DNA of 64,000 nt from Candidatus Magasanikiibacteriota bacterium (GTDB lineage Bacteria; Patescibacteriota; Patescibacteriia; Magasanikbacterales; UBA922): positions 12,135-76,134 of the forward strand of contig DOMK01000013.1 in the NCBI GenBank assembly GCA_003510435.1, given 5' to 3'. The notes under the pieces are model-generated. The model saw nothing but the letters and a program-made list of their open reading frames with translations, searched no databases and had not been told where the DNA came from. This document shows positions 13,124 to 63,708 of the stretch, one piece after another. Each line of letters begins with the position of its first letter. Position 1 is the stretch's first letter. Both the position numbers and the translations under genes were made by a program.

Positions 13124-13272
13124 ATGACTAAAAGGTCTGACCTTCCCGATGTAAAATCGGGACGCTCTATAACCTCCGCCAAAGGCGGATCAGCCTATGG
13201 CTGAAACTGCCTGTCCGTCCGAAGTCCTCCGTAGCTTTAGCGAAGGAGGACGAAGGCGGAAGCTACAGATCC

Positions 13273-14799: not shown

Positions 14800-16200
14800 A
14801 TGACTACACCAGCCAAAATTGATTTACAAAAATTACCCGTGATCGCCCTCGTCGGTAGAGTTAATGTCGGCAAATCAACTCTTTTTAATAAACTAATTGA
14901 AAGTAACAAAGCCATTGTCTCCGATGTCCCTGGAACTACCAGAACCAATAATGAAGGCACAATTCTTTGGCGCGGAAAATATATAAAAATAATTGACACT
15001 GGTGGTCTCACTTTTGAAGATGATATTCCTCTAGAAGAAGACATTGTGATCCAAAGTGAACGGGCCATGAAAGAAGCAGATATTATACTTTTTATAGCTG
15101 ATGTTGAAGATGGCATCTTACCCCAAGAAAGAGAACTGGCCAAAAGAATGCGTCGAATAATTACCAAACCAGTAATCCTCGTGGCCAACAAAGTGGATAG
15201 TGAAAAAAAAGCTATAAATTTGAATGAGCCAGAATGGATGAAACTGGGTTTAGGTGAACCTTTTTCTATTTCAGCGGCCAATGGCAGAAACACCGGCGAC
15301 CTTTTGGATTATATATACAAAATTTTAGGAAAAATAAAAATTACTCCAAAAAAATTATCTCAAACCAAAGACAGACCAATTGATGTCAGCATTATTGGCA
15401 AACCAAATGTTGGTAAATCTTCTTTATTCAATAAATTAATTGGCCAAGAAAAAGTTATTGTCAATCCAATGGCTCACACCACGCGCGAACCACACGATAC
15501 TTTAGTAGATTATGAATATAAAGTAGGGGCAAAGCTCGTAAACCAAAAAATAAATTTTATTGATACCGCTGGTATAAGAAGAAAAGCCAAAGTAAGTGGC
15601 AAACTAGAAAAAGAAGGCATTAGTAAGAGTATCCAATCAGCCGAACAATCTGACATTATTCTTTTGATAATAGATGGGGCAGAAATTATTTCCTCTCAAG
15701 ATATGCAATTGGCCGGATTACTAGAAAAAAGATCCAAAAGCGTTATAATAATAGTAAATAAATGGGACTTGGCCGAAGATAATTCTGAAACCGCACGTAA
15801 TAAAGTAAAAAGAATGGTTTATTCATTTTTCCCTCATCTAGATTTTGCTCCCATGGTTTTTACTAGTGGCAAAACAGGCTATCGCGTTCATGATATTTTT
15901 CCACTATTAATTCAGGCTTGGAATGCCAGACAAACTTCTATCCCCAATCCTGTTTTGGATAAATTTATTCAAACTGTTCAAGCGACCCACCTACCATCAC
16001 GTGGTAAGGGTACCAGACAACCTACTCTACTGGGTATGACTCAAGTGAATATTGCTCCACCAGTTTTTCAAATTATTGTAAAATATAGAACATCTCTGCA
16101 CCGGTCTTATCTAAATTTTGTAGAAAACAAATTAAGGGAGCAATTTAATTTCTTTGCCTGCCCAATTGTGATAAAATTAAGTAAGAGTAAAAAAGTATAA
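14800..16200 (+). CDS. der: ribosome-biogenesis GTPase Der (EngA)
   Basis: 466 aa. Tandem GTPase domains (GRVNVGKSTLFN and GKPNVGKSSLFN, each with DTAG) plus a C-terminal KH-like domain. Confidence 0.9.
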   Translation: MTTPAKIDLQKLPVIALVGRVNVGKSTLFNKLIESNKAIVSDVPGTTRTNNEGTILWRGKYIKIIDTGGLTFEDDIPLEEDIVIQSERAMKEADIILFIADVEDGILPQERELAKRMRRIITKPVILVANKVDSEKKAINLNEPEWMKLGLGEPFSISAANGRNTGDLLDYIYKILGKIKITPKKLSQTKDRPIDVSIIGKPNVGKSSLFNKLIGQEKVIVNPMAHTTREPHDTLVDYEYKVGAKLVNQKINFIDTAGIRRKAKVSGKLEKEGISKSIQSAEQSDIILLIIDGAEIISSQDMQLAGLLEKRSKSVIIIVNKWDLAEDNSETARNKVKRMVYSFFPHLDFAPMVFTSGKTGYRVHDIFPLLIQAWNARQTSIPNPVLDKFIQTVQATHLPSRGKGTRQPTLLGMTQVNIAPPVFQIIVKYRTSLHRSYLNFVENKLREQFNFFACPIVIKLSKSKKV

Positions 16201-23130: not shown

Positions 23131-23495
23131 ATTCCGTGCAATTCCTATCTTCCTTATTTCCGTGTATAAAAAACACCACTACAAGTGGCGTCCTTTAGTA
23201 GCGGCGAGGAGGATGCCTCAATGCCATTGGTGATGTTAAGGCTCTCTTACCGCTACGGTCATAACTATAACAATAAATTCTCAAAAAAGCAAGATTTGAC
23301 CAAAAACACCAGTAATTTTAAAAAAATACAAAAGAAAAACCCCCGTCATACGACTGGGGTTTATCTTAGGCTTTTAGGTTTCCTGACCTTAACATCACTG
23401 ACCACAATATACCATATTTTTACCAGTTTGTCAAGATCTTGCACCTCATCTTAAGTAAAAATTATGTATTTTTAGCCTAATTTTATATATAAAAC

Positions 23496-25127: not shown

Positions 25128-25991
25128 TTAACTCAATTCGCTTATCAATCTCTTCAACTCTTCTTTAGAATAATATTCCACCACAATTGTCCCCTTTTCA
25201 CCTTTTTGGGTTATGTAAACCTTAGTACCCAATCTCTCTTCCAAAACTTGCTCAGCCGATATTAAATTTGGATCACGCCGAACAGAACCCTTGCGTGAAC
25301 CTGGTCCTTTTTGCGCTATTACTTGTTCCACATCTCTCACAGTCATCTTCTCACCCATCATACTGGCAAAAACATCTAGTTGTTCTTTTTCATCTCTAAG
25401 ACTTAAAAGAGACTTGGCTTTACCGACACTAATTTTATTATCAATCAAAGCTTTTTGAATTACTTCTGGCAAAGACAACAGACGAACTAAATTGGCAACC
25501 GAAGAACGACTCTTACCAACTTGTTCAGACACATCTTCTTGAGTAAGACCAAATTCATCAATTAACCTCTGATAAGCAAAAGCTTCTTCAACTGGATTAA
25601 GATCTTGACGTTGAATATTTTCTATCAAAGCTAATTCTAATTTTTGCTGTTGATTGGCACTGCGAACAATTGCTGGGACAGTGGCCAAACCAGCAATGGC
25701 AGACGCTCGTAAACGCCTTTCACCAGCAATCAATTCATAACCACCGTCAGACTTTTCTGTCACGACTAGTGGTTGTAAAATGCCGTGTTTTTTAATTGAA
25801 GCTACCAAATCTTCCAAATCAGAATGAGAAAATTCTCGACGTGGCTGTTCAGAATTAGGTACGATTTCTGAAATTGGAATATGCCAAATTTTATCATTAT
25901 CATTATTAAGAATACCTGTTTCGCGATGAATCATTTTTCTAAAAGTGCTTTGCTGTGGTATAAGTGAATTGAGTCCTTTACCTAGAGCCAT
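25128..25991 (-). CDS. parB: chromosome partitioning protein ParB (Spo0J)
   Basis: 287 aa. ParB N-terminal box (GERRLRAS), an HTH and a C-terminal dimerisation region. Confidence 0.85.
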   Translation of the reverse strand: MALGKGLNSLIPQQSTFRKMIHRETGILNNDNDKIWHIPISEIVPNSEQPRREFSHSDLEDLVASIKKHGILQPLVVTEKSDGGYELIAGERRLRASAIAGLATVPAIVRSANQQQKLELALIENIQRQDLNPVEEAFAYQRLIDEFGLTQEDVSEQVGKSRSSVANLVRLLSLPEVIQKALIDNKISVGKAKSLLSLRDEKEQLDVFASMMGEKMTVRDVEQVIAQKGPGSRKGSVRRDPNLISAEQVLEERLGTKVYITQKGEKGTIVVEYYSKEELKRLISELS

Positions 25992-26198
25992 ATTTTTTAC
26001 TAATCCCGAACCCGCCGTAGTCCGTCAGCTGACGGACGAAGGTGGGGAGGGATCCCTTTTCTATGAATCAAAGGCTGGATTACACCCAAACCTTCGTACC
26101 AGTCGAAAGCGAGATCTCTCCACTCGGAGTTAAATTTATTAATTAATTATTCTATGAAAGTTTTATTATTATTTGGCGTCATGATGACACGGAAAAGG

Positions 26199-26226: not shown

Positions 26227-27014
26227 GAAATAATCTCTCTTGCTAGTCTTTCATAAGCCTTAGCGCCTTTTCCATTGGGATCATAATGAAATATTGACTG
26301 ACCAAAACTTGGGGCTTCGGCCAGACGAACGGTACGAGGAATTACTGTACGAAAAATTGTATCAGGAAAATATTTATACAATTCATTCATAATATCCTCT
26401 GACAATTTGGTTCGTTTATCAAACATAGTAATCACGGCTCCCAAAATACCAAGCTCAGGCTTGATATGAGTTTGGATAAGATTGATTGTTTTTAATAACT
26501 GACCTAAACCCTCTAAAGCATAATATTCTGCCTGAACTGGAATAAGAAGTTCGTCAGCTGCCACCAAACTATTGATAGTCAACAAACCCAAAGACGGCGG
26601 ACAATCAATAATAATATAATCATAAGCATGCTTTAATTCTTCTAATAAATCAGCCAATTGAAATTCACGCCTCTCAACATCCACCAGTTCAATATTAGCC
26701 CCAGCTAGATTTTCTGTACTAGGAGCAATTCGCAAACCTTCATGGGCAGTATTTTTTATAATATCATGAATCCTTTTCTGTTTTGCTAGAGCCTCATAAA
26801 TACCATATTCCACATTATCTTTATTTAAACCCAAACCACTAGAAGCATTAGCTTGTGGATCCATGTCAACCAATAACACAAAATAGCCCAATTCTGATAA
26901 AACAGCGGCCAGATTCATGGCAGTAGTCGTCTTTCCTACTCCGCCTTTTTGATTAACAACAGAAATTACTTTTCCCATATCACATATTATAGCAAATATT
27001 GACAAAAAAACCAA
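26205..27014 (-). CDS. parA: chromosome partitioning ATPase ParA (Soj)
   Basis: Deviant Walker A KGGVGKTT. The tabulated ORF starts with TTG at 27014; ATG at 26978 (MGKVISVVNQKGG) is the more likely start. Confidence 0.85.
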   Translation of the reverse strand: MVFLSIFAIICDMGKVISVVNQKGGVGKTTTAMNLAAVLSELGYFVLLVDMDPQANASSGLGLNKDNVEYGIYEALAKQKRIHDIIKNTAHEGLRIAPSTENLAGANIELVDVERREFQLADLLEELKHAYDYIIIDCPPSLGLLTINSLVAADELLIPVQAEYYALEGLGQLLKTINLIQTHIKPELGILGAVITMFDKRTKLSEDIMNELYKYFPDTIFRTVIPRTVRLAEAPSFGQSIFHYDPNGKGAKAYERLAREIISLHSERQ

Positions 27015-27027
27015 GATAACTTATAAT
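26999..27027 (+). promoter_or_regulatory. consensus sigma70-type promoter TTGACA-N17-TATAAT reading toward tRNA-Leu
   Basis: ttgaca aaaaaaccaagataact tataat about 145 nt upstream of tRNA-Leu. A divergent TATAAT for parA lies at about 26986-26991 on the other strand. Confidence 0.55.
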
Positions 27028-27170
27028 GTATCCACAAAAGATATGCCCAGATGCCTGCCTGCCGACGAGGCAGGGCGGAACTGGTACCATGAACCACAAG
27101 GATTCATGACCATACACCCCACGTGGTGCATGGGACGCACAGTATTATTTACAAGAACACAACCAAATAT

Positions 27171-27257
27171 GCCCAGATGGCGGAACTGGTAGACGCACTG
27201 GACTCAAAATCCAGCGGTCGCAAGACCATGAGGGTTCGATTCCCTCTTTGGGCACCA
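27171..27257 (+). tRNA. tRNA-Leu (anticodon CAA), class II with a long variable arm
   Basis: 87 nt ending in an encoded CCA. Anticodon loop CTCAAAA, long extra arm CGGTCGCAAGACCAT, T-loop TTCGATT. The 3' end lies 7 nt before the next ATG. Confidence 0.8.
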
Positions 27258-36380: not shown

Positions 36381-36561
36381 ATAGCATTGATTTAAACAGA
36401 TTAAAACTGATTCAGACAAAAAATTTACCACAAAATCTCTGTGTAATTCTGTCTAAAACAATGCTTATATCTTAGCAAAAACTAACCGATTTGGCAAGCA
36501 AAAAACACACCAATTTTGATGTGCTTTTGAGTCGTCCCGAAGGCGCAGACGACCTTCGGGT

Positions 36562-36771
36562 TCATTCCTTCTTCCTCCTCGAGGGGAATGCCTCCTTGAT
36601 GACACGGTACTCGGACCACGTCATCCACTGACCAGGCACAACACCGAAGATCTCACTGGGTGTTCGCCTGCCACCCGTCTTCTCCGACGGAATGCACTCA
36701 TCCAGCGCTTCCGGCGGGTAACGACGCAGTTCGTCCGTCTGAACAGATTTTAGTGCAAACACCTTGGGCAT
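36562..36771 (-). CDS. GC-rich 69-aa hypothetical protein (mini-cassette 3)
   Basis: MPKVFALKSVQTDELRRYPPEALDECIPSEKTGGRRTPSEIFGVVPGQWMTWSEYRVIKEAFPSRRKKE. It has its own TATAAT (plus 36799-36804) and a GGAG RBS, followed by a GC-rich double hairpin and a T-run (36494-36560). GC content is clearly above the surroundings. Confidence 0.5.
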   Translation of the reverse strand: MPKVFALKSVQTDELRRYPPEALDECIPSEKTGGRRTPSEIFGVVPGQWMTWSEYRVIKEAFPSRRKKE

Positions 36772-36873
36772 GTTGTTCTCCAAATCTATGTTTATTTTAT
36801 TATACACCCACAAAATTTTTATGCAACAAAAAAACACACTAATTTTAATGTGTTCACCATTTCCGTGTTCTCC

Positions 36874-41488: not shown

Positions 41489-41799
41489 ATAAATTACATC
41501 AATTTTAATCTGTTTAAATCTGTCTAAATCAATGCCAAAATTAAAGACTCTCCCGTCGGGGAGAGTCGTTTGTAGTGTTAGTCTGTTTTAGGACACTAAA
41601 AAACTCGCCCGCCGGGTTGGGGTGTATTATTATTAGTATTACTTGTCTGCCGTAGAGGCAGATTTGTTCGAAACATTTGTCTCATATGTTTAAATAATAC
41701 AACTACTTTTGAATAACGTCAAATAACTTATCCACACCGCACTAGAACCTCCTTACAGTCGGTTCGGTGCAGTGCAAGCACCTTTAAACAAAAGCACCA

Positions 41800-41828
41800 T
41801 TGACAAAACTACTTTTCTGTGATATAAT
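41800..41828 (+). promoter_or_regulatory. consensus sigma70 promoter TTGACA-N17-TATAAT (mini-cassette 1)
   Basis: ttgaca aaactacttttctgtga tataat. An AGGAGG RBS at 41901-41906 lies 7 nt before the ATG at 41914. Confidence 0.6.
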
Positions 41829-41913
41829 ATTTTGTTAAAAAACAGTTGAAAAACTAGATTTATTTGGCTAAATATAGACAAATTTGTCCGGTCTTTCAAC
41901 AGGAGGAAACGCC

Positions 41914-42084
41914 ATGGAATTAATCCTGGCAATAATCCTCGGCCTGATTGGGTTTGCCATCCTGAAGCTGATTCTTCGCACCGCTCTGTTCGGTGTAAAG
42001 ATCGGCTGTGGGTTGCTCACCCTCGCCATAATACTCGCGATCGTGTCGGGCCTGTGGCTGAAAGCCGGGGAGGGGTTCGTGTGA
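41914..42084 (+). CDS. GC-rich 56-aa hydrophobic peptide with two predicted TM helices (mini-cassette 1)
   Basis: MELILAIILGLIGFAILKLILRTALFGVKIGCGLLTLAIILAIVSGLWLKAGEGFV. Strong RBS. The stop codon sits in the loop of the hairpin gggttcg-tgtgaa-cgaaccc. Codon usage is GC-rich, unlike neighbouring genes. Confidence 0.5.
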   Translation: MELILAIILGLIGFAILKLILRTALFGVKIGCGLLTLAIILAIVSGLWLKAGEGFV

Positions 42085-42131
42085 ACGAACCCGCCCATTA
42101 TTAATTTTATATTTTAAAATTAATATAGGAT

Positions 42132-42160
42132 AAAAAATTCTGTTTTACACAGAATTTTTT
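42132..42160. terminator. bidirectional terminator aaaaaa-ttctg-ttttaca-cagaa-tttttt
   Basis: Hairpin flanked by A- and T-runs between recO (minus) and cassette 1 (plus). Confidence 0.55.
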
Positions 42161-42770
42161 ATTTTAATATTTTGCCCCAATCATTAACTTTTCTATCTGT
42201 ATTATACAATAAAAATTTATATATAAAATCATGCACTGATTTTTTGTATTCTAGTTTATTTATGATTTCCCAATTTTCTTTACTTAACATTTCTAAATCA
42301 TTTTTTATTCCAGTCGGAATTTTATCAGACTCAACAATATCTAAACCAAGATAAGACAATAACCTTACAACATAAGAATCTAACAAGTGTATACCGTATA
42401 CTGTATACTGATTATCAACATATTCCAACCAACTCACAATCAAATCAAATATTCTCTCATCTTTCTCTCCTTCGTGTAAAAGTTTATCCAAAGTTGAAAC
42501 CAAAAATCCCGCGGCCAAACTTTTTTGCAATTTTTTTCTAATACTAACAAAATAATTTATTGGTTGAACTGCTCCTAAATAATTTAATTCCTTACCAAGA
42601 ATAACTTCTGCTTCTACCAAAGAAAACGGCTCTAAATGAGCCGAATTTTTTGAAGTAATTTTTTTTACCCCTCTCGTCAAAATTTCCATTTTTCCTTTTT
42701 CCAAAGTATAAAATGAGATAATTTGATCAGCCTCGCGAAAATCACGGCGATAGAGGACAAATGCTAACAT
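42159..42770 (-). CDS. recO: DNA repair protein RecO
   Basis: 203 aa. N-terminal OB-fold signature (YRRDFREADQIISFYT...). No Zn finger, which is common in short RecO forms. Confidence 0.75.
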   Translation of the reverse strand: MLAFVLYRRDFREADQIISFYTLEKGKMEILTRGVKKITSKNSAHLEPFSLVEAEVILGKELNYLGAVQPINYFVSIRKKLQKSLAAGFLVSTLDKLLHEGEKDERIFDLIVSWLEYVDNQYTVYGIHLLDSYVVRLLSYLGLDIVESDKIPTGIKNDLEMLSKENWEIINKLEYKKSVHDFIYKFLLYNTDRKVNDWGKILK

Positions 42771-46135: not shown

Positions 46136-46951
46136 CTAAAATTTTTCATTTGGTCTTCGAGTGACCACCATTGGCCCATCCTTTGTAATAACAATCGTAT
46201 GTTCTTGATGAGCACAAAGACTATTATCAGCTGTGGAAATACTCCAACCATCATCAGCTGTAATTACATGGTAATCGCCTATAGTCACCATTGGTTCAAT
46301 CGCAATTACCACTCCTTCCCTCAAAATATAATTTTCTAAACTCTTATCATAATAATTTGGTACGCGTGGATCTTCGTGTACTGCATGGCCAACACCATGA
46401 CCAACCAAATCACGCACTATACCATAACCCTGTGGTTCTACCCAGTCCTGAATAGCTTTACCAATGCTCGCTACAGTATTACCTACTTGAGCTTGAACAA
46501 TACCAATTTCTAGACATTTTTTTGTCACATTTAATAATTGTTTGGTTTTTTCTGGTATTTTCCCCACCGCAACAGTCAAAGCTGTATCAGTAAAAAATCC
46601 ATTACCATTTTCTCCTTTACCACATTTGATTGGATATTGCATGCCAATATCAATACTAAAAATATCACCATCATTCAAAATTTTTTCTTTGGTGGCAATA
46701 CCATGAACTAGTTCTTCATTTTTGGAAGCGCAAATCGTTGAAGGAAATGGTGGTTCACTTTTTCTTCCTCTGTAACCTTTAAAAGCTGGTCGCCCACCAG
46801 CTTCTTTTATCATTCTTTCTGCCTCCTGATCAATTTCCCAAGCTGAAATACCGGGTTTGACCATGCCGGCTAATTTTTCTAAAATTTTACCTAAAATTGC
46901 CCCACCTTCAGTGATCAAAGCAATTTCTTCTGCTGATTTTATATAGGCCAT
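46136..46951 (-). CDS. map: methionine aminopeptidase type I
   Basis: 271 aa with a pita-bread fold and conserved metal ligands (D, D, H, E, E context: FSIDIGM, GHGVG). Confidence 0.9.
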   Translation of the reverse strand: MAYIKSAEEIALITEGGAILGKILEKLAGMVKPGISAWEIDQEAERMIKEAGGRPAFKGYRGRKSEPPFPSTICASKNEELVHGIATKEKILNDGDIFSIDIGMQYPIKCGKGENGNGFFTDTALTVAVGKIPEKTKQLLNVTKKCLEIGIVQAQVGNTVASIGKAIQDWVEPQGYGIVRDLVGHGVGHAVHEDPRVPNYYDKSLENYILREGVVIAIEPMVTIGDYHVITADDGWSISTADNSLCAHQEHTIVITKDGPMVVTRRPNEKF

Positions 46952-47191
46952 ATGGTTAATATTTTACCCTAAAATAAGGAAAAAAGCAACCAAAAACTCC
47001 CTATTCAAGGGAGTTTTTATTTTTTTAAATTTTGTAAATCTTTTACTTCTTTTTCTAAATTTTTTATTAATTTTTTCTGTTCATCTGGTTCTAAATCTGG
47101 AAAAAGCTTAAGCCAAAAATTGAGTTCTGTTTCATTCTCGCCTAATTGAATAAGTTTTTTAACTAAATCACTAATTGATAATGACATATTA

Positions 47192-47815
47192 TTATGCTAA
47201 TTCTTCTTTTCCACTTAATTTTCTATATGGTTTAGCCACTATTAACTTTTCATAATTAACTGAAATAAAATCACCAACAGTTTTCAATATACTAGACAGC
47301 TTCGGCATTTTATCTTTTAAAACTGCAGAGACTTTGTCTAAAGCCATAGGTAAAGCGTCAAAATTGGCCATATAATAAGAAACTGTTCCTCCAACACCAG
47401 CGGCTGCATATTCACCAACATAAGCAGCTGCATAAGCAAATATTGCAGCTGTAGTTGCTACCATGTAGTTAAATTGTTCAGTTACTTCCAAATCTCTACC
47501 ACCTTCTTTTTCAGTGATTGTTCCTTTGGCTAAATTATACTCACCATAAAACGGCGCATTATTTATAAGCTTTAAAAATAAAGGGGCTTTTACCAATTGC
47601 ATAATGCGATCTAAAAAAATCTTTCTAAGTAACCTTAATCTTTCTCCTCTTGCTTTCTCTTTAACCTTTTCCACTGTTTTTGGTCCTTCAGATAATTCCA
47701 AATTACCCAACTCTGTACTAGTAGATTCGACAATTAAATCATCGGCTGTATCATCTACTGGATTTTCTTTTTCCCAAGGTGTCATAAATTGTCTCATGTC
47801 TGATTCTGATCTCAT
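47192..47815 (-). CDS. hypothetical protein between map and adk
   Basis: 207 aa with an acidic N-terminus and an Ala/Gly/Tyr-rich hydrophobic stretch. No motif recognised. Confidence 0.35.
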   Translation of the reverse strand: MRSESDMRQFMTPWEKENPVDDTADDLIVESTSTELGNLELSEGPKTVEKVKEKARGERLRLLRKIFLDRIMQLVKAPLFLKLINNAPFYGEYNLAKGTITEKEGGRDLEVTEQFNYMVATTAAIFAYAAAYVGEYAAAGVGGTVSYYMANFDALPMALDKVSAVLKDKMPKLSSILKTVGDFISVNYEKLIVAKPYRKLSGKEELA

Positions 47816-47819
47816 AGAT

Positions 47820-48479
47820 TTATTTCAAAATTTTTTCAATTTCCTTATCAACTTTATCAATATCAATCTCACCATCTACAGTTTTTAAGACTCCCAAATC
47901 TTGGTAATAATCCAAAATTGGTCTAATGGCTGTATTCCCTTGTTCAATAATTCTCTTTTTGGCTGACTCGGGATTATCATCTTCACGAATTATTAATTTA
48001 CCCCTACATTCTGGACAATCAAACTTGGCTTCATTTTCTAGAGAATAAGGCAATATATATCCACAATCTGGACAAATTTTACGTCGAGTCAAACGATTAA
48101 AACTAGTCTTGTCAGATAAAGCAATTTCAATTACCAAAATTTCATTTTCTAAACGCTTGTTAGTAAAATATTCTTGGTATTTTTTGGCTTGCTCTACATT
48201 GCGAATCGCCCCATCTAACAAAACCCCTCTACCTGAATCTAAATTTTTATCCATAGCCGAAAAAGCTAGCTTGTATATCAAATCATCAGCTACTAGTTTA
48301 CCAGCTTTCATGTCATCTAATTTTTGTTTATCTGTTGGGTCAGCATTTGGATCTTTATCCAAAGCGCGCAATAAATCTCCAGTGGAAATATGCGCCAAAT
48401 CATATCGACCAACTAATTTTCTTGCTTGGGTGCCCTTACCACTCCCGGGGACGCCCATTAATATTATTACTTTTTTCAT
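47820..48479 (-). CDS. adk: adenylate kinase with a Zn-lid
   Basis: 219 aa. P-loop GVPGSGKGTQ and lid cysteines CPDCG...CPEC. Confidence 0.9.
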   Translation of the reverse strand: MKKVIILMGVPGSGKGTQARKLVGRYDLAHISTGDLLRALDKDPNADPTDKQKLDDMKAGKLVADDLIYKLAFSAMDKNLDSGRGVLLDGAIRNVEQAKKYQEYFTNKRLENEILVIEIALSDKTSFNRLTRRKICPDCGYILPYSLENEAKFDCPECRGKLIIREDDNPESAKKRIIEQGNTAIRPILDYYQDLGVLKTVDGEIDIDKVDKEIEKILK

Positions 48480-48552: not shown

Positions 48553-48834
48553 TTACAATTGATTATAATAATTTTTAAACACTGTCATTAATCCTTCTTT
48601 ATCATCATGACTTATTTTTCCACTAACACGTAAATGATGCAACACATCACGAATCTTTTGCAAAGAAATCATATGCTGACCATCACGAGCAGCCAAAATA
48701 GCCAATTCTACGGTTTGTTCATCATGATAATTTAAAGAAGCTACTTTATGTTGTGAAACCAAATGTCTGACAGCTTCACTATGTAGATGATGTCCTGTGG
48801 TAGAATATTTTGTACTAGAGCCAAATATTGACAT
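48553..48834 (-). CDS. hypothetical His-rich small protein
   Basis: 93 aa with many His residues (HHLHSE, HHLRV). No motif recognised. Confidence 0.35.
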   Translation of the reverse strand: MSIFGSSTKYSTTGHHLHSEAVRHLVSQHKVASLNYHDEQTVELAILAARDGQHMISLQKIRDVLHHLRVSGKISHDDKEGLMTVFKNYYNQL

Positions 48835-48892
48835 ATTTTAATAATTAATTTTGCTTAAATTAGCAAATTTATTCTATCATAAAACAAAGGCA

Positions 48893-48921
48893 TTGACAAA
48901 TATATATATGTGTGATAAAAT
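48893..48921 (+). promoter_or_regulatory. promoter TTGACA-N17-TAAAAT (mini-cassette 2)
   Basis: ttgaca aatatatatatgtgtga taaaat. A 5'UTR hairpin tgtgggt...acccaca follows, then RBS GGAGGG at 48976-48981 and the ATG at 48988. Confidence 0.55.
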
Positions 48922-48987
48922 AATTTGTCTTGTGGGTTACTTACACCCACAGATAGCATACAACCGATCTTACCTGGAGGGAAGAAA

Positions 48988-49176
48988 ATGCAAATTCGTT
49001 TTCTAGACATCGTTGCCTTGGTCGTTCAGGTACTAGTGGTCCTAGGTGGTTTGTTACTCACAATACTCAGTGAGACCGTGTGGGATCTGTCGGTTGGAAT
49101 CGCGACAACCTACAGCGGAGTACGGGCGATAAAAGGCATCTTCAAAGAAATGAGGACGCCTCCACCAGCCGATTAA
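48988..49176 (+). CDS. GC-rich 62-aa hydrophobic peptide (mini-cassette 2)
   Basis: MQIRFLDIVALVVQVLVVLGGLLLTILSETVWDLSVGIATTYSGVRAIKGIFKEMRTPPPAD. One long hydrophobic span. GC-rich codons. Confidence 0.5.
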   Translation: MQIRFLDIVALVVQVLVVLGGLLLTILSETVWDLSVGIATTYSGVRAIKGIFKEMRTPPPAD

Positions 49177-49256
49177 GTGAGGGGGCAGTCAGTTCCAAGC
49201 CCCCCAGAGCAATAAAACATTTATTTTTCTGGGGGACTGATTGCCTTAATAATAAA

Positions 49257-49286
49257 ACCAGCTGTTTTTAAACGGCTGGTTTTTTT
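49257..49286 (+). terminator. intrinsic terminator accagc-N12-gctggt plus a T7 run
   Basis: Downstream of the cassette-2 ORF. Preceded by G/C-tract hairpins (gggggc...gccccc). Confidence 0.6.
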
Positions 49287-49319
49287 GTTTTGTGTTATGT
49301 GTTTTGTGACTCGTGTCGA

Positions 49320-50591
49320 TTACATCCTATCATACTCATGTACCTCAATCTGAGAATCAATCTGCTTGGCAGTTTCAATCGCTACTGACACAACGATCAA
49401 AAGTGAAGTACCACCGATTACTAATGACTGAGTACCAGTAAAAGCCCGAAGAACTAATGGCATAATCGCAATTAAACCCAAGAACAAAGCACCAACGAAA
49501 ATTAATCGATTCATGGTCTTGCCTAAATATTCTTCAGTTTGTTTACCAGGACGAATCCCAGGAATAAAACCACCCTGTCTTTGTAAATTTTCAGCCATTT
49601 TTTGAGGATGAAAAATGACAGCCGTATAAAAATATGTAAAACCAAATACTAAAATAAAATAGAGTAAAGCGTAAAATAGCTGATTATTAAAAATATTCAC
49701 TATAAACTTAGCAGCTGTGGCAGAAAAACCAGCGCCATTTACAAAAAACTGAGCAATCATTGGCGGAAACAAAACCACTGAGATAGCAAAGATAATCGGA
49801 ATTACACCAGCCATATTTACGCGCAAAGGTAAATGGGTGCTATTGCCACCATAGGTTTTATTACCCCGAATTTGTTTGGCATAACTAACAGGAATATTTC
49901 TTTGTCCTTCACTAATGATAACCACACCAACAATCGTACCAACAGCAATAGCTACAAATAACAAATAAGTAACTAAATCAGCTGGATTATAATTTATTAC
50001 CAAATTTTGTACAACGTTTGGTAAATTGGCTACGATACCAGCAAAGATAAGAAGTGAAATACCATTGCCAATTTTCTTTTCAGTTATTAATTCACCAATC
50101 CACATTAAAAATACTGTACCCGCAGAAATTATAATCATGATGGAAGCTAATTTCCAATAGGTTAAATCTGGAATAATATTATTTTGTGATTGATTCAAAA
50201 GCTTGATCATACCAAAAGCTTGCAACAAAGCCAAAGGCACAGTTGCCAGTCTGGTATACATATTGATTTTTTGTTGACCCGCTTCACCCTCTTTTTGCAT
50301 TTCTTCCAAACGAGGAATAACCATGGCTAACAACTGAAAAATAATTGAAGATGTAATATATGGTGACACACCCATGAGCACAATAGAAAAATTTTCCATG
50401 GTGCCACCAGAAAAAACATTTAATAAACCTAAAATTTGATTACCAGATAAAAATTTTGCCAAAGCCACTGTGTCTACCCCTGGAATCGGAACATGAGCTG
50501 CAAATCTAAAAACAATAAGCAGTCCTAAAACAAATAGGACTCGATTGCGTAAATCTTTAATTTTCCAAATTCGTCTTATCTTTTCCCACAT
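49320..50591 (-). CDS. secY: preprotein translocase subunit SecY
   Basis: 423 aa, 10 TM helices, conserved SecY motifs. Confidence 0.9.
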   Translation of the reverse strand: MWEKIRRIWKIKDLRNRVLFVLGLLIVFRFAAHVPIPGVDTVALAKFLSGNQILGLLNVFSGGTMENFSIVLMGVSPYITSSIIFQLLAMVIPRLEEMQKEGEAGQQKINMYTRLATVPLALLQAFGMIKLLNQSQNNIIPDLTYWKLASIMIIISAGTVFLMWIGELITEKKIGNGISLLIFAGIVANLPNVVQNLVINYNPADLVTYLLFVAIAVGTIVGVVIISEGQRNIPVSYAKQIRGNKTYGGNSTHLPLRVNMAGVIPIIFAISVVLFPPMIAQFFVNGAGFSATAAKFIVNIFNNQLFYALLYFILVFGFTYFYTAVIFHPQKMAENLQRQGGFIPGIRPGKQTEEYLGKTMNRLIFVGALFLGLIAIMPLVLRAFTGTQSLVIGGTSLLIVVSVAIETAKQIDSQIEVHEYDRM

Positions 50592-62750: not shown

Positions 62751-62780
62751 AATTATATACAAATCTTAAGTATAAGTCAA
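62751..62780 (-). promoter_or_regulatory. near-consensus promoter TTGACT-N17-TATAAT upstream of tuf
   Basis: The minus strand reads cttgact tatacttaagatttgta tataat about 130 nt upstream of the tuf ATG. A small hairpin gcgta...tacgc lies near the start site. Confidence 0.5.
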
Positions 62781-62853
62781 GGGGATATGGTGGGGACAAA
62801 CCCTAATCCTGAGCGTAGTGAAGCGAAGCGAAACGGAGCCGAAGGATCCCCTT
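62779..62853. repeat. GC-rich element with 8-bp palindromic ends (aaggggat ... atcccctt)
   Basis: About 75 nt. Its right part (cgaaggatcccctttttct) resembles 26040-26075 (cgaaggtggggagggatcccttttct). Confidence 0.5.
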
Positions 62854-63062
62854 TTTCTCTGCACTAAAAAAGTCTTAAATTTCTAATATCTAATTTCTAA
62901 TTAACCTAATAAAATACCAAATAACAAAATCCAAATTCCAAATCAATTTTAAACTTAAGATTACTAAATTAATATCCACACCACTTACATTGACAACTCT
63001 CTCTCTCTGTTTGTTAGGATAAGATGTCGTGCATCGAACGCACGAAGATGAAGGAGGCAGAC

Positions 63063-63395
63063 ATGGCGATTGTCACCATCCGGTTGTACCGGAAAAATGG
63101 CAAAAGGGGGGTTGAGGTAATCAAAAAAAAGCATTACCCGCGCCTCCAACGGTCACTTACCCGCTACATGGCCTCGGTCGATGGAGAACACCTCGCCCGC
63201 TCATGGAACACAGCAGGGCTGGCCGAGGTAGACGGTGAATGGTTTGTCACCGTCGATGGAGATGGTAAGGCCAGCATGCCGGAAAAACTGAGAAGCCATC
63301 TCTGGATCTACTATGGCTTCAACAGGTTCCTAGCAAGGATCTACAAGGGCCTAACCAGTGACGATGAACACCTTCCCGCCTTTCGCCCCTCCTAG
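63063..63395 (+). CDS. GC-rich 110-aa hypothetical soluble protein (mini-cassette 4)
   Basis: MAIVTIRLYRKNGKRGVEVIKKKHYPRL.... RBS AAGGAGG 5 nt upstream. A TTGACA box lies at 62990-62995, with a weak -10 TAGGAT after a 19-nt spacer. Very GC-rich relative to its neighbours. An alternative upstream ATG at 63024 lacks an RBS. Confidence 0.45.
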   Translation: MAIVTIRLYRKNGKRGVEVIKKKHYPRLQRSLTRYMASVDGEHLARSWNTAGLAEVDGEWFVTVDGDGKASMPEKLRSHLWIYYGFNRFLARIYKGLTSDDEHLPAFRPS

Positions 63396-63654
63396 CGTTC
63401 GCTTCGCCCCGGTTCAGGGGCAACATGCCGGTTGCGCGTCAGCCGATGACCGAGAGGGAAAACCCTCCGGGTGTCGGAGGGTGTGAGCATGCGGACAATA
63501 CAACGAAAGAATCGTCCACCACAGCTAGATTTTCATTATTGAAAATTTAACTAAGGAGTTTGGGACGATTTTTTTGTTTACACAAGCAATCCTATCCCCT
63601 AACCCCTTTCCCCTACAAAAGGGCAAGGGGAATTAAAGCCCCTCCACTTTTTAA

Positions 63655-63674
63655 GGGGAGGGGTTGGGGTGGGG
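63655..63674 (+). other. canonical G-quadruplex-forming motif GGGGAGGGGTTGGGGTGGGG, with complementary C-tracts 60 nt upstream
   Basis: Four G4 tracts separated by 1-2 nt loops, directly seen. It is preceded by cccctaacccctttcccct and cccctcc tracts that can pair with it. Confidence 0.6.
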
Positions 63675-63708
63675 TTTTATTCCTTATTCTTTATTCCTTA
63701 TTCCTTTT

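Follow-up and report, generated by a model that had tools for sequence, protein, structure and literature searches.

A putative GC-rich small-peptide gene in a variable slot after secY in Candidatus Magasanikbacteria

The spacer downstream of secY in a Candidatus Magasanikbacteria genome carries pep62, a GC-rich open reading frame (ORF) of 62 codons set between its own putative promoter and terminator. The unit was analyzed within a stretch of 64,000 nucleotides, referred to here as the window. We hold it probable, with considerable reserve, that pep62 is an accessory, independently transcribed gene for a small membrane peptide that occupies a variable slot between operons in the manner of a phage moron. 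Judged by codon usage and by its occurrence among relatives, the coding part is compositionally foreign and species-specific. Transcription would start at ~48928 from a strong sigma-70-type promoter, which would be one arm of a resident bidirectional promoter whose other arm would drive orf93-adk. The mRNA would carry a small 5' hairpin, a strong ribosome binding site, the ORF, a very stable hairpin, and an intrinsic terminator. The cargo of the slot would turn over fast, since related species have other GC-rich genes there, unrelated to pep62, whose products are small membrane or secreted proteins.

Layout of the pep62 unit

The host is a Candidatus Magasanikbacteria organism (Patescibacteria/CPR) from groundwater. 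The closest genome found is a Magasanikiibacteriota MAG, and NCBI names the neighboring proteins Magasanikbacteria. The same SecY is also encoded on ENA contig ERZ5996431 NODE_108 (102 kb) and in other assemblies. The ribosomal superoperon runs on the minus strand, and the pep62 unit lies within the 485-nt secY-orf93 spacer, convergent with secY. An earlier note on this DNA had described a promoter, a 5' hairpin, a Shine-Dalgarno sequence, a 62-codon ORF, a 3' hairpin, and a terminator between secY and adk. All of these elements are present where the note placed them (Table 1). The unit does fall in the secY-adk interval, but its immediate neighbors are secY and orf93, not adk. The strands also need correction from the earlier description: the unit is on the plus strand, opposite to secY, adk, and map on the minus strand. 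The secY-adk-map stretch had been taken as otherwise conserved, which does not hold: the window has orf93 and orf207/orf56 in it, and the sister species has an 822-aa gene. The locus shows that the spc-alpha ribosomal cluster is split after secY by a terminator and a promoter in this clade.

Table 1 Features of the pep62 locus and of the other GC-rich mini-genes in the window
Feature	Positions	Strand	Description
map	46136-46951	-	
Two more ORFs		-	Listed after adk, before map
adk	47820-48479	-	
orf93	48553-48834	-	Conserved 93-aa gene without family match, precedes adk
orf93(-adk) promoter	48871-48899	-	TTGTCA-17-TAGAAT with TG; -35 overlaps the cassette -35 on the opposite strand
Segment missing in the sister species	48880-49280	+	58 unrelated bases with a small hairpin there instead
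Cassette promoter	48893-48921	+	TTGACA-17-TAAAAT, 11/12 match, extended -10 TG at 48913-48914
5'-end transcript hairpin	48930-48952	+	tgtgggt/acccaca, 8 bp, 7-nt loop
Shine-Dalgarno sequence	48976-48981	+	GGAGGG, 6 nt 5' of the ATG at 48988; read from the sequence
pep62 ORF	48988-49176	+	62 aa, MQIRFLDIVALVVQVLVVLGGLLLTILSETVWDLSVGIATTYSGVRAIKGIFKEMRTPPPAD
Long 3'-UTR hairpin	49182-49247	+	66 nt; basal stem, 7-nt bulge, inner G/C stem, AT-rich tip
Intrinsic terminator	49248-49290	both	Stem 49254-49283, A run and T run flanking
secY	49320-50591	-	
Cassette D	36470-36870	-	69 aa; duplicated terminator sequence on the flanks
Cassette C	41800-42150		56-aa two-TM peptide; perfect 12/12 promoter with TG
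Cassette A	62989-63580		110 aa, soluble

The composition changes sharply at the unit, as would be seen if the region were an assembly chimera or a contaminating fragment. This explanation is effectively refuted because 7 contigs, drawn from several assemblies and sequencing runs made independently, have the 485-nt spacer at 100% identity. The control elements are also homologous to those in related genomes.

The predicted signals for expression are strong. Eight promoter sites that match at 11/12 positions or better occur in the whole 64-kb window on both strands, and three of the eight carry the TG of an extended -10 compared to 0.27 expected from shuffles. The transcription start of the pep62 unit is predicted at ~48928. 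The hairpin that follows may stabilize the 5' end of the mRNA, and the 5' region as a whole folds no better than shuffled sequences (z -0.7). The overlap of the cassette and orf93-adk -35 boxes suggests that the two promoters would compete for RNA polymerase. The pep62 frame is nested in an 83-aa ORF with a TTG start (48925-49176) in the ORF listing. When the transcribed core is shuffled by dinucleotides, 1% of the shuffles contain an ATG-initiated ORF of at least 62 codons preceded by a Shine-Dalgarno sequence (p ~0.01). The pep62 ORF is known as one sequence variant, without a pattern of substitutions to show coding. The arrangement of these signals suggests that the pep62 unit is transcribed and translated.

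The peptide has a single strongly hydrophobic span (residues 8-27), followed by an amphipathic stretch and a basic/proline tail. Its Kyte-Doolittle maximum over 19 residues is 2.83 at residues 8-26, and its C-terminus reads RTPPPAD-stop, which places Arg-x-Pro-Pro-Pro near the stop codon of this putative membrane peptide. The one long hydrophobic span and the basic/proline tail reported previously are thus borne out. The structure prediction that the earlier note had called for was run with AlphaFold and gives one long helix, residues 2-55, with a pLDDT of 86. The peptide would insert in the membrane.

The G/C hairpins and the clean intrinsic terminator described after the ORF are also confirmed, and together they form a 3' module that folds far better than shuffled sequences (z -6.65 to -6.9). 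The terminator can be read on both strands and lies 37 nt past the secY stop on the minus strand; therefore it probably ends the secY transcript as well. A terminator shared in this way would probably keep the two convergent transcripts apart. The long hairpin on its 5' side is likely to stabilize the pep62 mRNA.

Relatives and the resident slot

The secY loci of 80 related genomes were used for comparison; contigs reached via Nramp homologues ended short of the secY spacer. The SecY of the sister species (L004/L088) is 96.9% identical to that of the window, and its spacer holds 58 nt in place of the window's 401 nt, with flanks ~90% identical on both sides. Several more distant relatives have orf93 directly after secY, with a spacer of 132-165 nt that contains a small terminator hairpin alone. 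pep62 is encoded in none of the 80 genomes examined. The spacer comparison proposed in the earlier note therefore upholds its description of a lineage-specific GC-rich unit, and the same peptide gene with matching GC, looked for at this position in the relatives, was not found.

Database searches identified pep62 as an orphan. A search of 5.8 billion proteins returned only the identical sequence, and phmmer, run exhaustively against 1.84 billion representatives, found a single, spurious repetitive protein. We did not detect a match to pep62 in JGI metagenomes and viral contigs, or in phage and plasmid DNA records, including by phage tblastn. The Pfam, NCBIfam, PADLOC, and PHROGs profiles, searched in answer to the suggestion of an HMM check, contain no family for pep62, and they gave no match to the three sibling cassettes of the window or to the cargo of the relatives. 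A PDB sequence search also gave no match. At the gathering score, Rfam 15 identified only tRNAs in the whole window; with E values up to 10, the best sub-threshold matches in the pep62 region hit the terminator only, and the GC islands of the relatives had no match. Neither the terminator pattern nor the cassette D hairpin was found in viral contigs. Neither a donor nor a homologue of the pep62 cargo was found in these searches, which is unusual for transferred genes.

The control elements have a different distribution from the ORF. The cassette -35 (TTGACAA) and the orf93 -35 are reverse complements of each other. This TTGACAA/TTGTCAA core is unchanged across four species, represented by the window, L004, L092, and L090. 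L090 (GCA_000990355) and L092 (a JGI contig) are each at ~80% SecY identity to the window. A homologous -10 on the cassette side is present in both L090 and L092 and is absent in L004. From this conservation, the cassette promoter appears to be one arm of a resident bidirectional promoter, with orf93 on the other arm. Positions 49184-49292 of the window align with L090 5984-5877, the 3' end of a peptide gene, with nhmmer E values of 1.6e-4 to 3.2e-4. Both 3' modules have the same two-hairpin architecture with compensatory changes in both stems (A-U to G-C and C-G to U-A), and the terminator is nearly identical to that of L090 at 5915-5885.

The cargo between these elements is different in each species. 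The L090 slot encodes a 54-aa single-TM peptide with a proline-rich tail, followed by a second unit that encodes a 109-aa membrane protein. The L092 slot encodes an 88-aa lipoprotein-like protein with a GC of 0.67-0.70. In both species the cargo is GC-rich, lies on the strand opposite to secY, and follows the homologous promoter. The pep62 peptide and the slot peptides of L090 and L092 are not homologous to each other, and their ORF regions retain no similarity, although the flanks can be aligned. The slot is empty in the sister species, and it is absent in L005 (79% SecY) and in more distant relatives. Since the promoter and 3' module are common to species with different ORFs, the slot and its control elements are, by this comparison, older than the cargo.

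These data revise the picture of a self-contained cassette, inserted whole from promoter to terminator, that the earlier note had given. The part that stands is the lineage-specific GC-rich unit. The control elements are resident and only the cargo differs, as seen in the -35 shared by four species, the -10 common to L090 and L092, and the homologous 3' module of L090. No integrase, attC core site, or convincing target duplication was found at the locus. A 10-nt flanking direct repeat (ATCATAAAAC/ATAATAAAAC) was considered as a target duplication and rejected; it is also found in L090 and is therefore a resident feature.

Composition and the other GC-rich mini-genes

The promoter has a GC content of 0.17. 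Between the predicted start and the 3' hairpin the value is 0.45-0.49, and it drops to 0.28 at the terminator; the window mean is 0.346. The rise begins exactly at the predicted transcription start, and the values in the unit compare with 0.32-0.35 in secY and orf93. Codon adaptation, another check that had been proposed, was computed and shows foreign usage, with a CAI-like value of 0.44 for pep62 compared to 0.69 ± 0.03 for the host. By codon position, the GC of pep62 is.57/.38/.51 compared to.47/.34/.25 in the host. The GC3 of pep62 (0.51, with 0.25 in the host) is not above its own mean GC, unlike in cassettes A, C, and D.

The window contains at least four GC-rich mini-genes including pep62, each with a promoter, a Shine-Dalgarno sequence, a small ORF, and a terminator. 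In all four, the Shine-Dalgarno sequence and ATG open an ORF that spans the GC-rich core. The four have no similarity to each other beyond their own terminators. The cassette A protein is an orphan except for an identical NCBI entry; its AlphaFold model has low confidence (pLDDT 62) and no structural match in the PDB. Cassette C, like pep62, is absent in the sister species. GC3 is 0.66-0.72 in cassettes A, C, and D, with clear periodicity. Cassette D has a homologue in the same place in L090, with 22/58 residues identical (z 5.4), and the homologue is equally GC-rich (GC3 0.66) and has a 3' hairpin 100% identical over 40 nt. Judged from this pair of sequences, GC-richness can persist for a long time in these genomes and need not mean recent import. 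The cargo of the slot had been called foreign-looking. The codon usage of pep62 agrees with that description, but the equation of GC-rich with foreign is weakened by the conserved, GC-rich cassette D. Because cassette D is conserved and GC-rich in long-diverged species, a simple recent import that has yet to ameliorate is insufficient as an account.

Related genomes have comparable units. The sister species carries a two-gene GC-rich unit of its own in a different spacer, and other GC-rich units are found in relatives at the same positions, after RecO, GlnA, and RsmB. One of these, in L094, again lies on the opposite strand behind a strong promoter and encodes a hydrophobic peptide of ~61 aa. 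The same spacers contain many GC-rich hairpin repeats.

These features bear on whether the gene evolved locally. pep62 could be an ancestral gene that diverged past recognition, or a gene that arose de novo from GC-rich hairpin repeats, and was lost in the sister species. The promoter and 3' module are common to species at ~80% SecY identity, so the slot is old, and cassette D is a GC-rich small gene that has persisted in place while diverging to 38% identity. The complete orphan status of pep62 and the cassette A protein, and the abundance of the hairpin repeats, would also fit. We nevertheless consider a local origin improbable. When the window is compared with L090 and L092, the flanks can be aligned but no similarity remains between the ORFs. 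The cargo differs in kind as well as length (a TM peptide, a lipoprotein, and a 109-aa membrane protein), and no piece of the cassette matches a repeat in the ~0.9 Mb of related DNA searched.

A small RNA, either non-coding or with a dual function, was also evaluated. The unit would then serve to make the GC-rich transcript itself, with the ORF as a secondary or incidental feature. Structured RNAs typically form GC-rich islands in AT-rich genomes, and the coincidence of the GC rise with the predicted transcription start, together with a pep62 GC3 that is not raised, would be expected of such an RNA. The whole transcript folds at z -5.86, but the excess structure comes almost wholly from the 3' module. 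That 3' hairpin-terminator, and not the ORF, is the only part conserved with another species, which favors an RNA; no Rfam family was found even at permissive thresholds. The Shine-Dalgarno sequence is strong and stands at an ideal distance from the ATG of the sole long frame through the GC-rich core, a combination rare among the shuffles. The non-coding reading is weakened further because this geometry is common to all four cassettes, three of which have clear GC3 periodicity, and we give it little chance.

The main functional rival to an accessory membrane-peptide gene is a type I toxin-antitoxin-like system. pep62 would damage membranes, its structured mRNA would be silent, and an antisense RNA would counteract it; the antisense RNA might come from read-through of the secY operon or be a small RNA that overlaps the 3' end. 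The size and hydrophobicity of pep62, its charged tail, its intergenic location, and its very stable mRNA fit a toxin of this type. In the full-length fold, the Shine-Dalgarno sequence pairs with CCUCCA of the Pro codons or with codons 12-14. Hydrophobic peptides of 54-61 aa with strong promoters are found repeatedly in inter-operon spacers, on the opposite strand (cassette C, the L090 peptide pep54, and the L094 peptide), and the pep62 unit and the convergent secY share their bidirectional terminator. However, an antisense promoter was not found inside or next to the unit, where the best minus-strand site scores 8/12 and none inside reaches 9/12, and a minus-strand terminator is absent inside the unit. 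pep62 matches no toxin family in Pfam, NCBIfam, or PADLOC, and the 5' region shows no excess folding over shuffles. The class is not specific to toxins, given that the cargo of the other cassettes is soluble proteins or a lipoprotein. On this evidence, we regard a type I toxin as unlikely.

By itself, the pep62 cassette adds one more to the orphan genes for small proteins. It belongs, however, to a set of several mini-genes, GC-rich and with strong promoters, that are found at the same inter-operon positions across a CPR clade, and this clade-wide pattern is of more interest than the single unit. The pattern combines fast turnover of cargo with conserved control elements and, in one case, GC-richness kept from one species to another. 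The genomes of CPR bacteria are tiny, and these organisms rely on other cells. Small membrane or secreted proteins that differ from one sister species to the next could plausibly mediate interactions with hosts or phages. For the origin of orphan genes in these lineages, the pattern is a tractable case as well. An extension that we treat as speculative and on the whole unlikely is that the slots are fixed, each bounded on one side by a bidirectional promoter that is resident and on the other by a 3' hairpin-terminator that is conserved, and that unrelated GC-rich orphan mini-genes, many of them for small membrane peptides, are swapped, born, or lost within them while their GC-richness is actively maintained in a 35% GC genome. 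If true, this would constitute an undescribed form of cassette exchange or gene birth in CPR bacteria that proceeds without an integrase.

Comparison with known systems

A RAPP-like motif close to the C-terminus of a small membrane or secretory protein is a mark of translation-arrest peptides (PMC12992588). pep62 resembles this type in being a small membrane peptide, encoded beside a Sec gene (secY), with Arg-x-Pro-Pro-Pro five residues from its stop codon. As an arrest sensor, its N-terminal membrane segment and RTPPP would stall the ribosome according to Sec activity, and stalling would control the 3' structures and read-through antisense to secY. The end of the ORF (49164-49176) is complementary to the 3' arm of the terminator at 12/13 positions, as an antiterminator would be. 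This pairing is rejected as unsupported by folding; it does not occur in the minimum-energy or centroid fold, and it is not conserved in L090. pep62 also differs from the RAPP type in its non-canonical motif, which is RTPP and not RAPP, RGPP, RAPG, or RAGP. The ORF is followed by a terminator and by no co-directional gene that could be a target, secY being convergent. The unit is not conserved either; it is absent in the sister species, and elsewhere the slot holds unrelated proteins. An arrest sensor is therefore very improbable.

Type I toxins, for which a survey exists (PMC2887945), include the Hok, Ldr, Fst, TxpA, and AapA classes. pep62 is like these in forming a small hydrophobic single helix with a charged tail, in its intergenic position and structured, stable mRNA, and in having several analogous peptide genes per genome. 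It differs in the absence of an evident antitoxin RNA or family match and in having sibling cassettes that encode soluble proteins, and its 62 aa are at the upper size limit.

Integron gene cassettes similarly have an imperfect hairpin behind a small ORF that is often an orphan, and the cargo at one position can be exchanged. The pep62 unit differs from them in having its own strong promoter and in being a single unit that is neither in an array nor beside an integrase. An integron cassette was rejected on the basis of this promoter and the absence of the attC core sites RYYYAAC/GTTRRRY on both strands of 48880-49300.

Chromosomal integration hot spots hold accessory cargo between core genes. 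Genomic islets between core genes are also known, for example in the Listeria pan-genome (PMC3556495). The secY slot is like a hot spot in carrying different accessory cargo in each species and being empty in others, and several such positions recur (after secY, RecO, GlnA, and RsmB). The differences are that the cargo is tiny, consisting of one small ORF of 54-110 codons, that it is uniformly GC-rich in AT-rich genomes and lies under a resident bidirectional promoter, and that neither a recombinase nor a tRNA attachment site is involved at the secY slot.

The searchable literature gave no description of GC-rich mini-genes that occupy fixed slots between operons in CPR genomes, which is weak evidence of novelty. 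The closest likeness is to phage morons, which are independent transcription units added between conserved genes (PMC3594210). Like a moron, the pep62 unit has its own promoter and terminator, deviates in GC from its neighbors, is present in one genome and missing at the same position in a close relative (401 compared to 58 nt), and is a small accessory gene between conserved genes that are left undisturbed. In contrast to a moron, it lies between secY and adk, outside a phage or prophage, has no phage gene nearby, and has no PHROG, phage-DNA, or viral-contig match or found donor; its promoter and 3' hairpin-terminator are resident and shared between species, with the ORF alone differing. The pep62 unit also fits the idea of small gene insertions that invade the inter-operon regions of the ribosomal cluster (PMC8046335).

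The secY-adk-map stretch and the end of pep62

The stretch containing secY, adk, and map carries two lineage-specific insertions besides the unit encoding pep62, the predicted 62-residue membrane peptide. The first is the orf207/orf56 pair; both genes have a composition like that of the host and both are missing from the sister species. The second is the gene for an 822-aa protein in that sister species. In a subset of Magasanikbacteria, orf93 is kept immediately after secY and ahead of adk, and an alignment of nine sequences has 15 invariant positions. We did not detect a family match for orf93. Because orf93 has its own promoter, the break in the spc-alpha cluster of this clade comes directly after secY.

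The closing codons of the pep62 ORF, stop included (ACCAGCCGATTAA, 49164–49176), are complementary at 12 of 13 positions to the 3′ arm of its terminator (49268–49280). This pairing could act as an antiterminator. It is not part of the minimum-energy fold, and it is not conserved in L090, a relative with about 80% SecY identity.

Other GC-rich mini-genes

Cassette C, a GC-rich mini-gene, occupies the opposite strand in the spacer that separates RecO from tRNA-Asn. The sister species lacks it, having 38 nt in place of window positions 41739–42176, and the same slot in the related locus L094 is occupied by a different hydrophobic peptide unit. The spacer after GlnA also varies: the GC-rich units located there differ between the sister species (L088) and the related locus L097, and the window spacer is only 57 nt.

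Cassette D is bracketed by a 24-nt direct repeat of terminator sequence (36500–36523 and 36829–36852). Its homologue in L090 is equally GC-rich and 38% identical in amino acid sequence, and across 40 nt of the 3′ hairpin (CCCGAAGGTCGTCTGCGCCTTCGGGACGAC...) the identity between the window and L090 is 100%.

Cassette A sits on the upstream side of the divergent tuf gene, and a long structured region follows its ORF. The protein was an orphan in a search of 5.8 billion proteins; its AlphaFold model has low confidence and gave no PDB match.

Coordinates of mini-genes, insertions, and RNA elements (window positions unless a related locus is named)
Feature	Position	Strand	Description
orf93	48553–48834	−	93-aa protein
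orf207 + orf56	47017–47815	−	adk-map interval, lineage-specific insertion
822-aa protein gene	L088 3979–6447		sister species, orf93-adk interval, lineage-specific insertion
Cassette C	41800–42150	+	GC-rich mini-gene unit
Cassette C promoter	41800–41828	+	perfect 12/12 match, with TG
Cassette C ORF	41914–42084	+	GC-rich; 56-aa two-TM peptide, MELILAIILGLIGFAILK...
Cassette C terminator	near 42128–42150	+	downstream of ORF
GlnA-downstream GC-rich unit	L088 13660–14400		107-aa ORF and overlapping 84-aa ORF
GlnA-downstream GC-rich unit	L097 6432–6888		124-aa ORF
Cassette D	36470–36870; L090 counterpart 14900–15280	− (window)	
Cassette D ORF	36562–36771	−	GC-rich, 69 aa, RsmB-AspRS interval
Cassette A	62989–63580	+	GC 0.53
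Cassette A ORF	63063–63395	+	110 aa, soluble; NCBI DEB09_03765
Candidate small RNA	23330–23434	−	promoter TTGACA-17-TATATT with TG, 11/12
Perfect 12/12 promoter	26999–27027	+	ahead of GC-rich leader; whole region 26999–27257
Palindromic hairpin elements	13124–13270, 25990–26130, 41540–41660, 62780–62850, 63590–63690; L090 4680–5900		

Candidate RNAs and hairpin elements

The minus-strand transcript predicted within 23330–23434, after the promoter, is about 75 nt long and ends in a clean terminator (ccccagtcgtatgacggggg plus a T run). It contains no ORF and has no Rfam match, and it is therefore a candidate small RNA. The GC-rich leader within 26999–27257 repeats the 5′ portion of the tRNA-Leu that follows it (tgcccagatg...gcggaactggta), with a hairpin breaking up the repeat. 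It is possibly a pseudo-copy of tRNA-Leu, or else a leader that undergoes processing.

Palindromic hairpin elements are scattered across this AT-rich genome and its relatives, and they often adjoin the GC-rich mini-genes. These short, GC-rich elements of intergenic spacers, exemplified by ctcccgtcggggagag and cccctccactttttaaggggagggg, are REP- or MITE-like.
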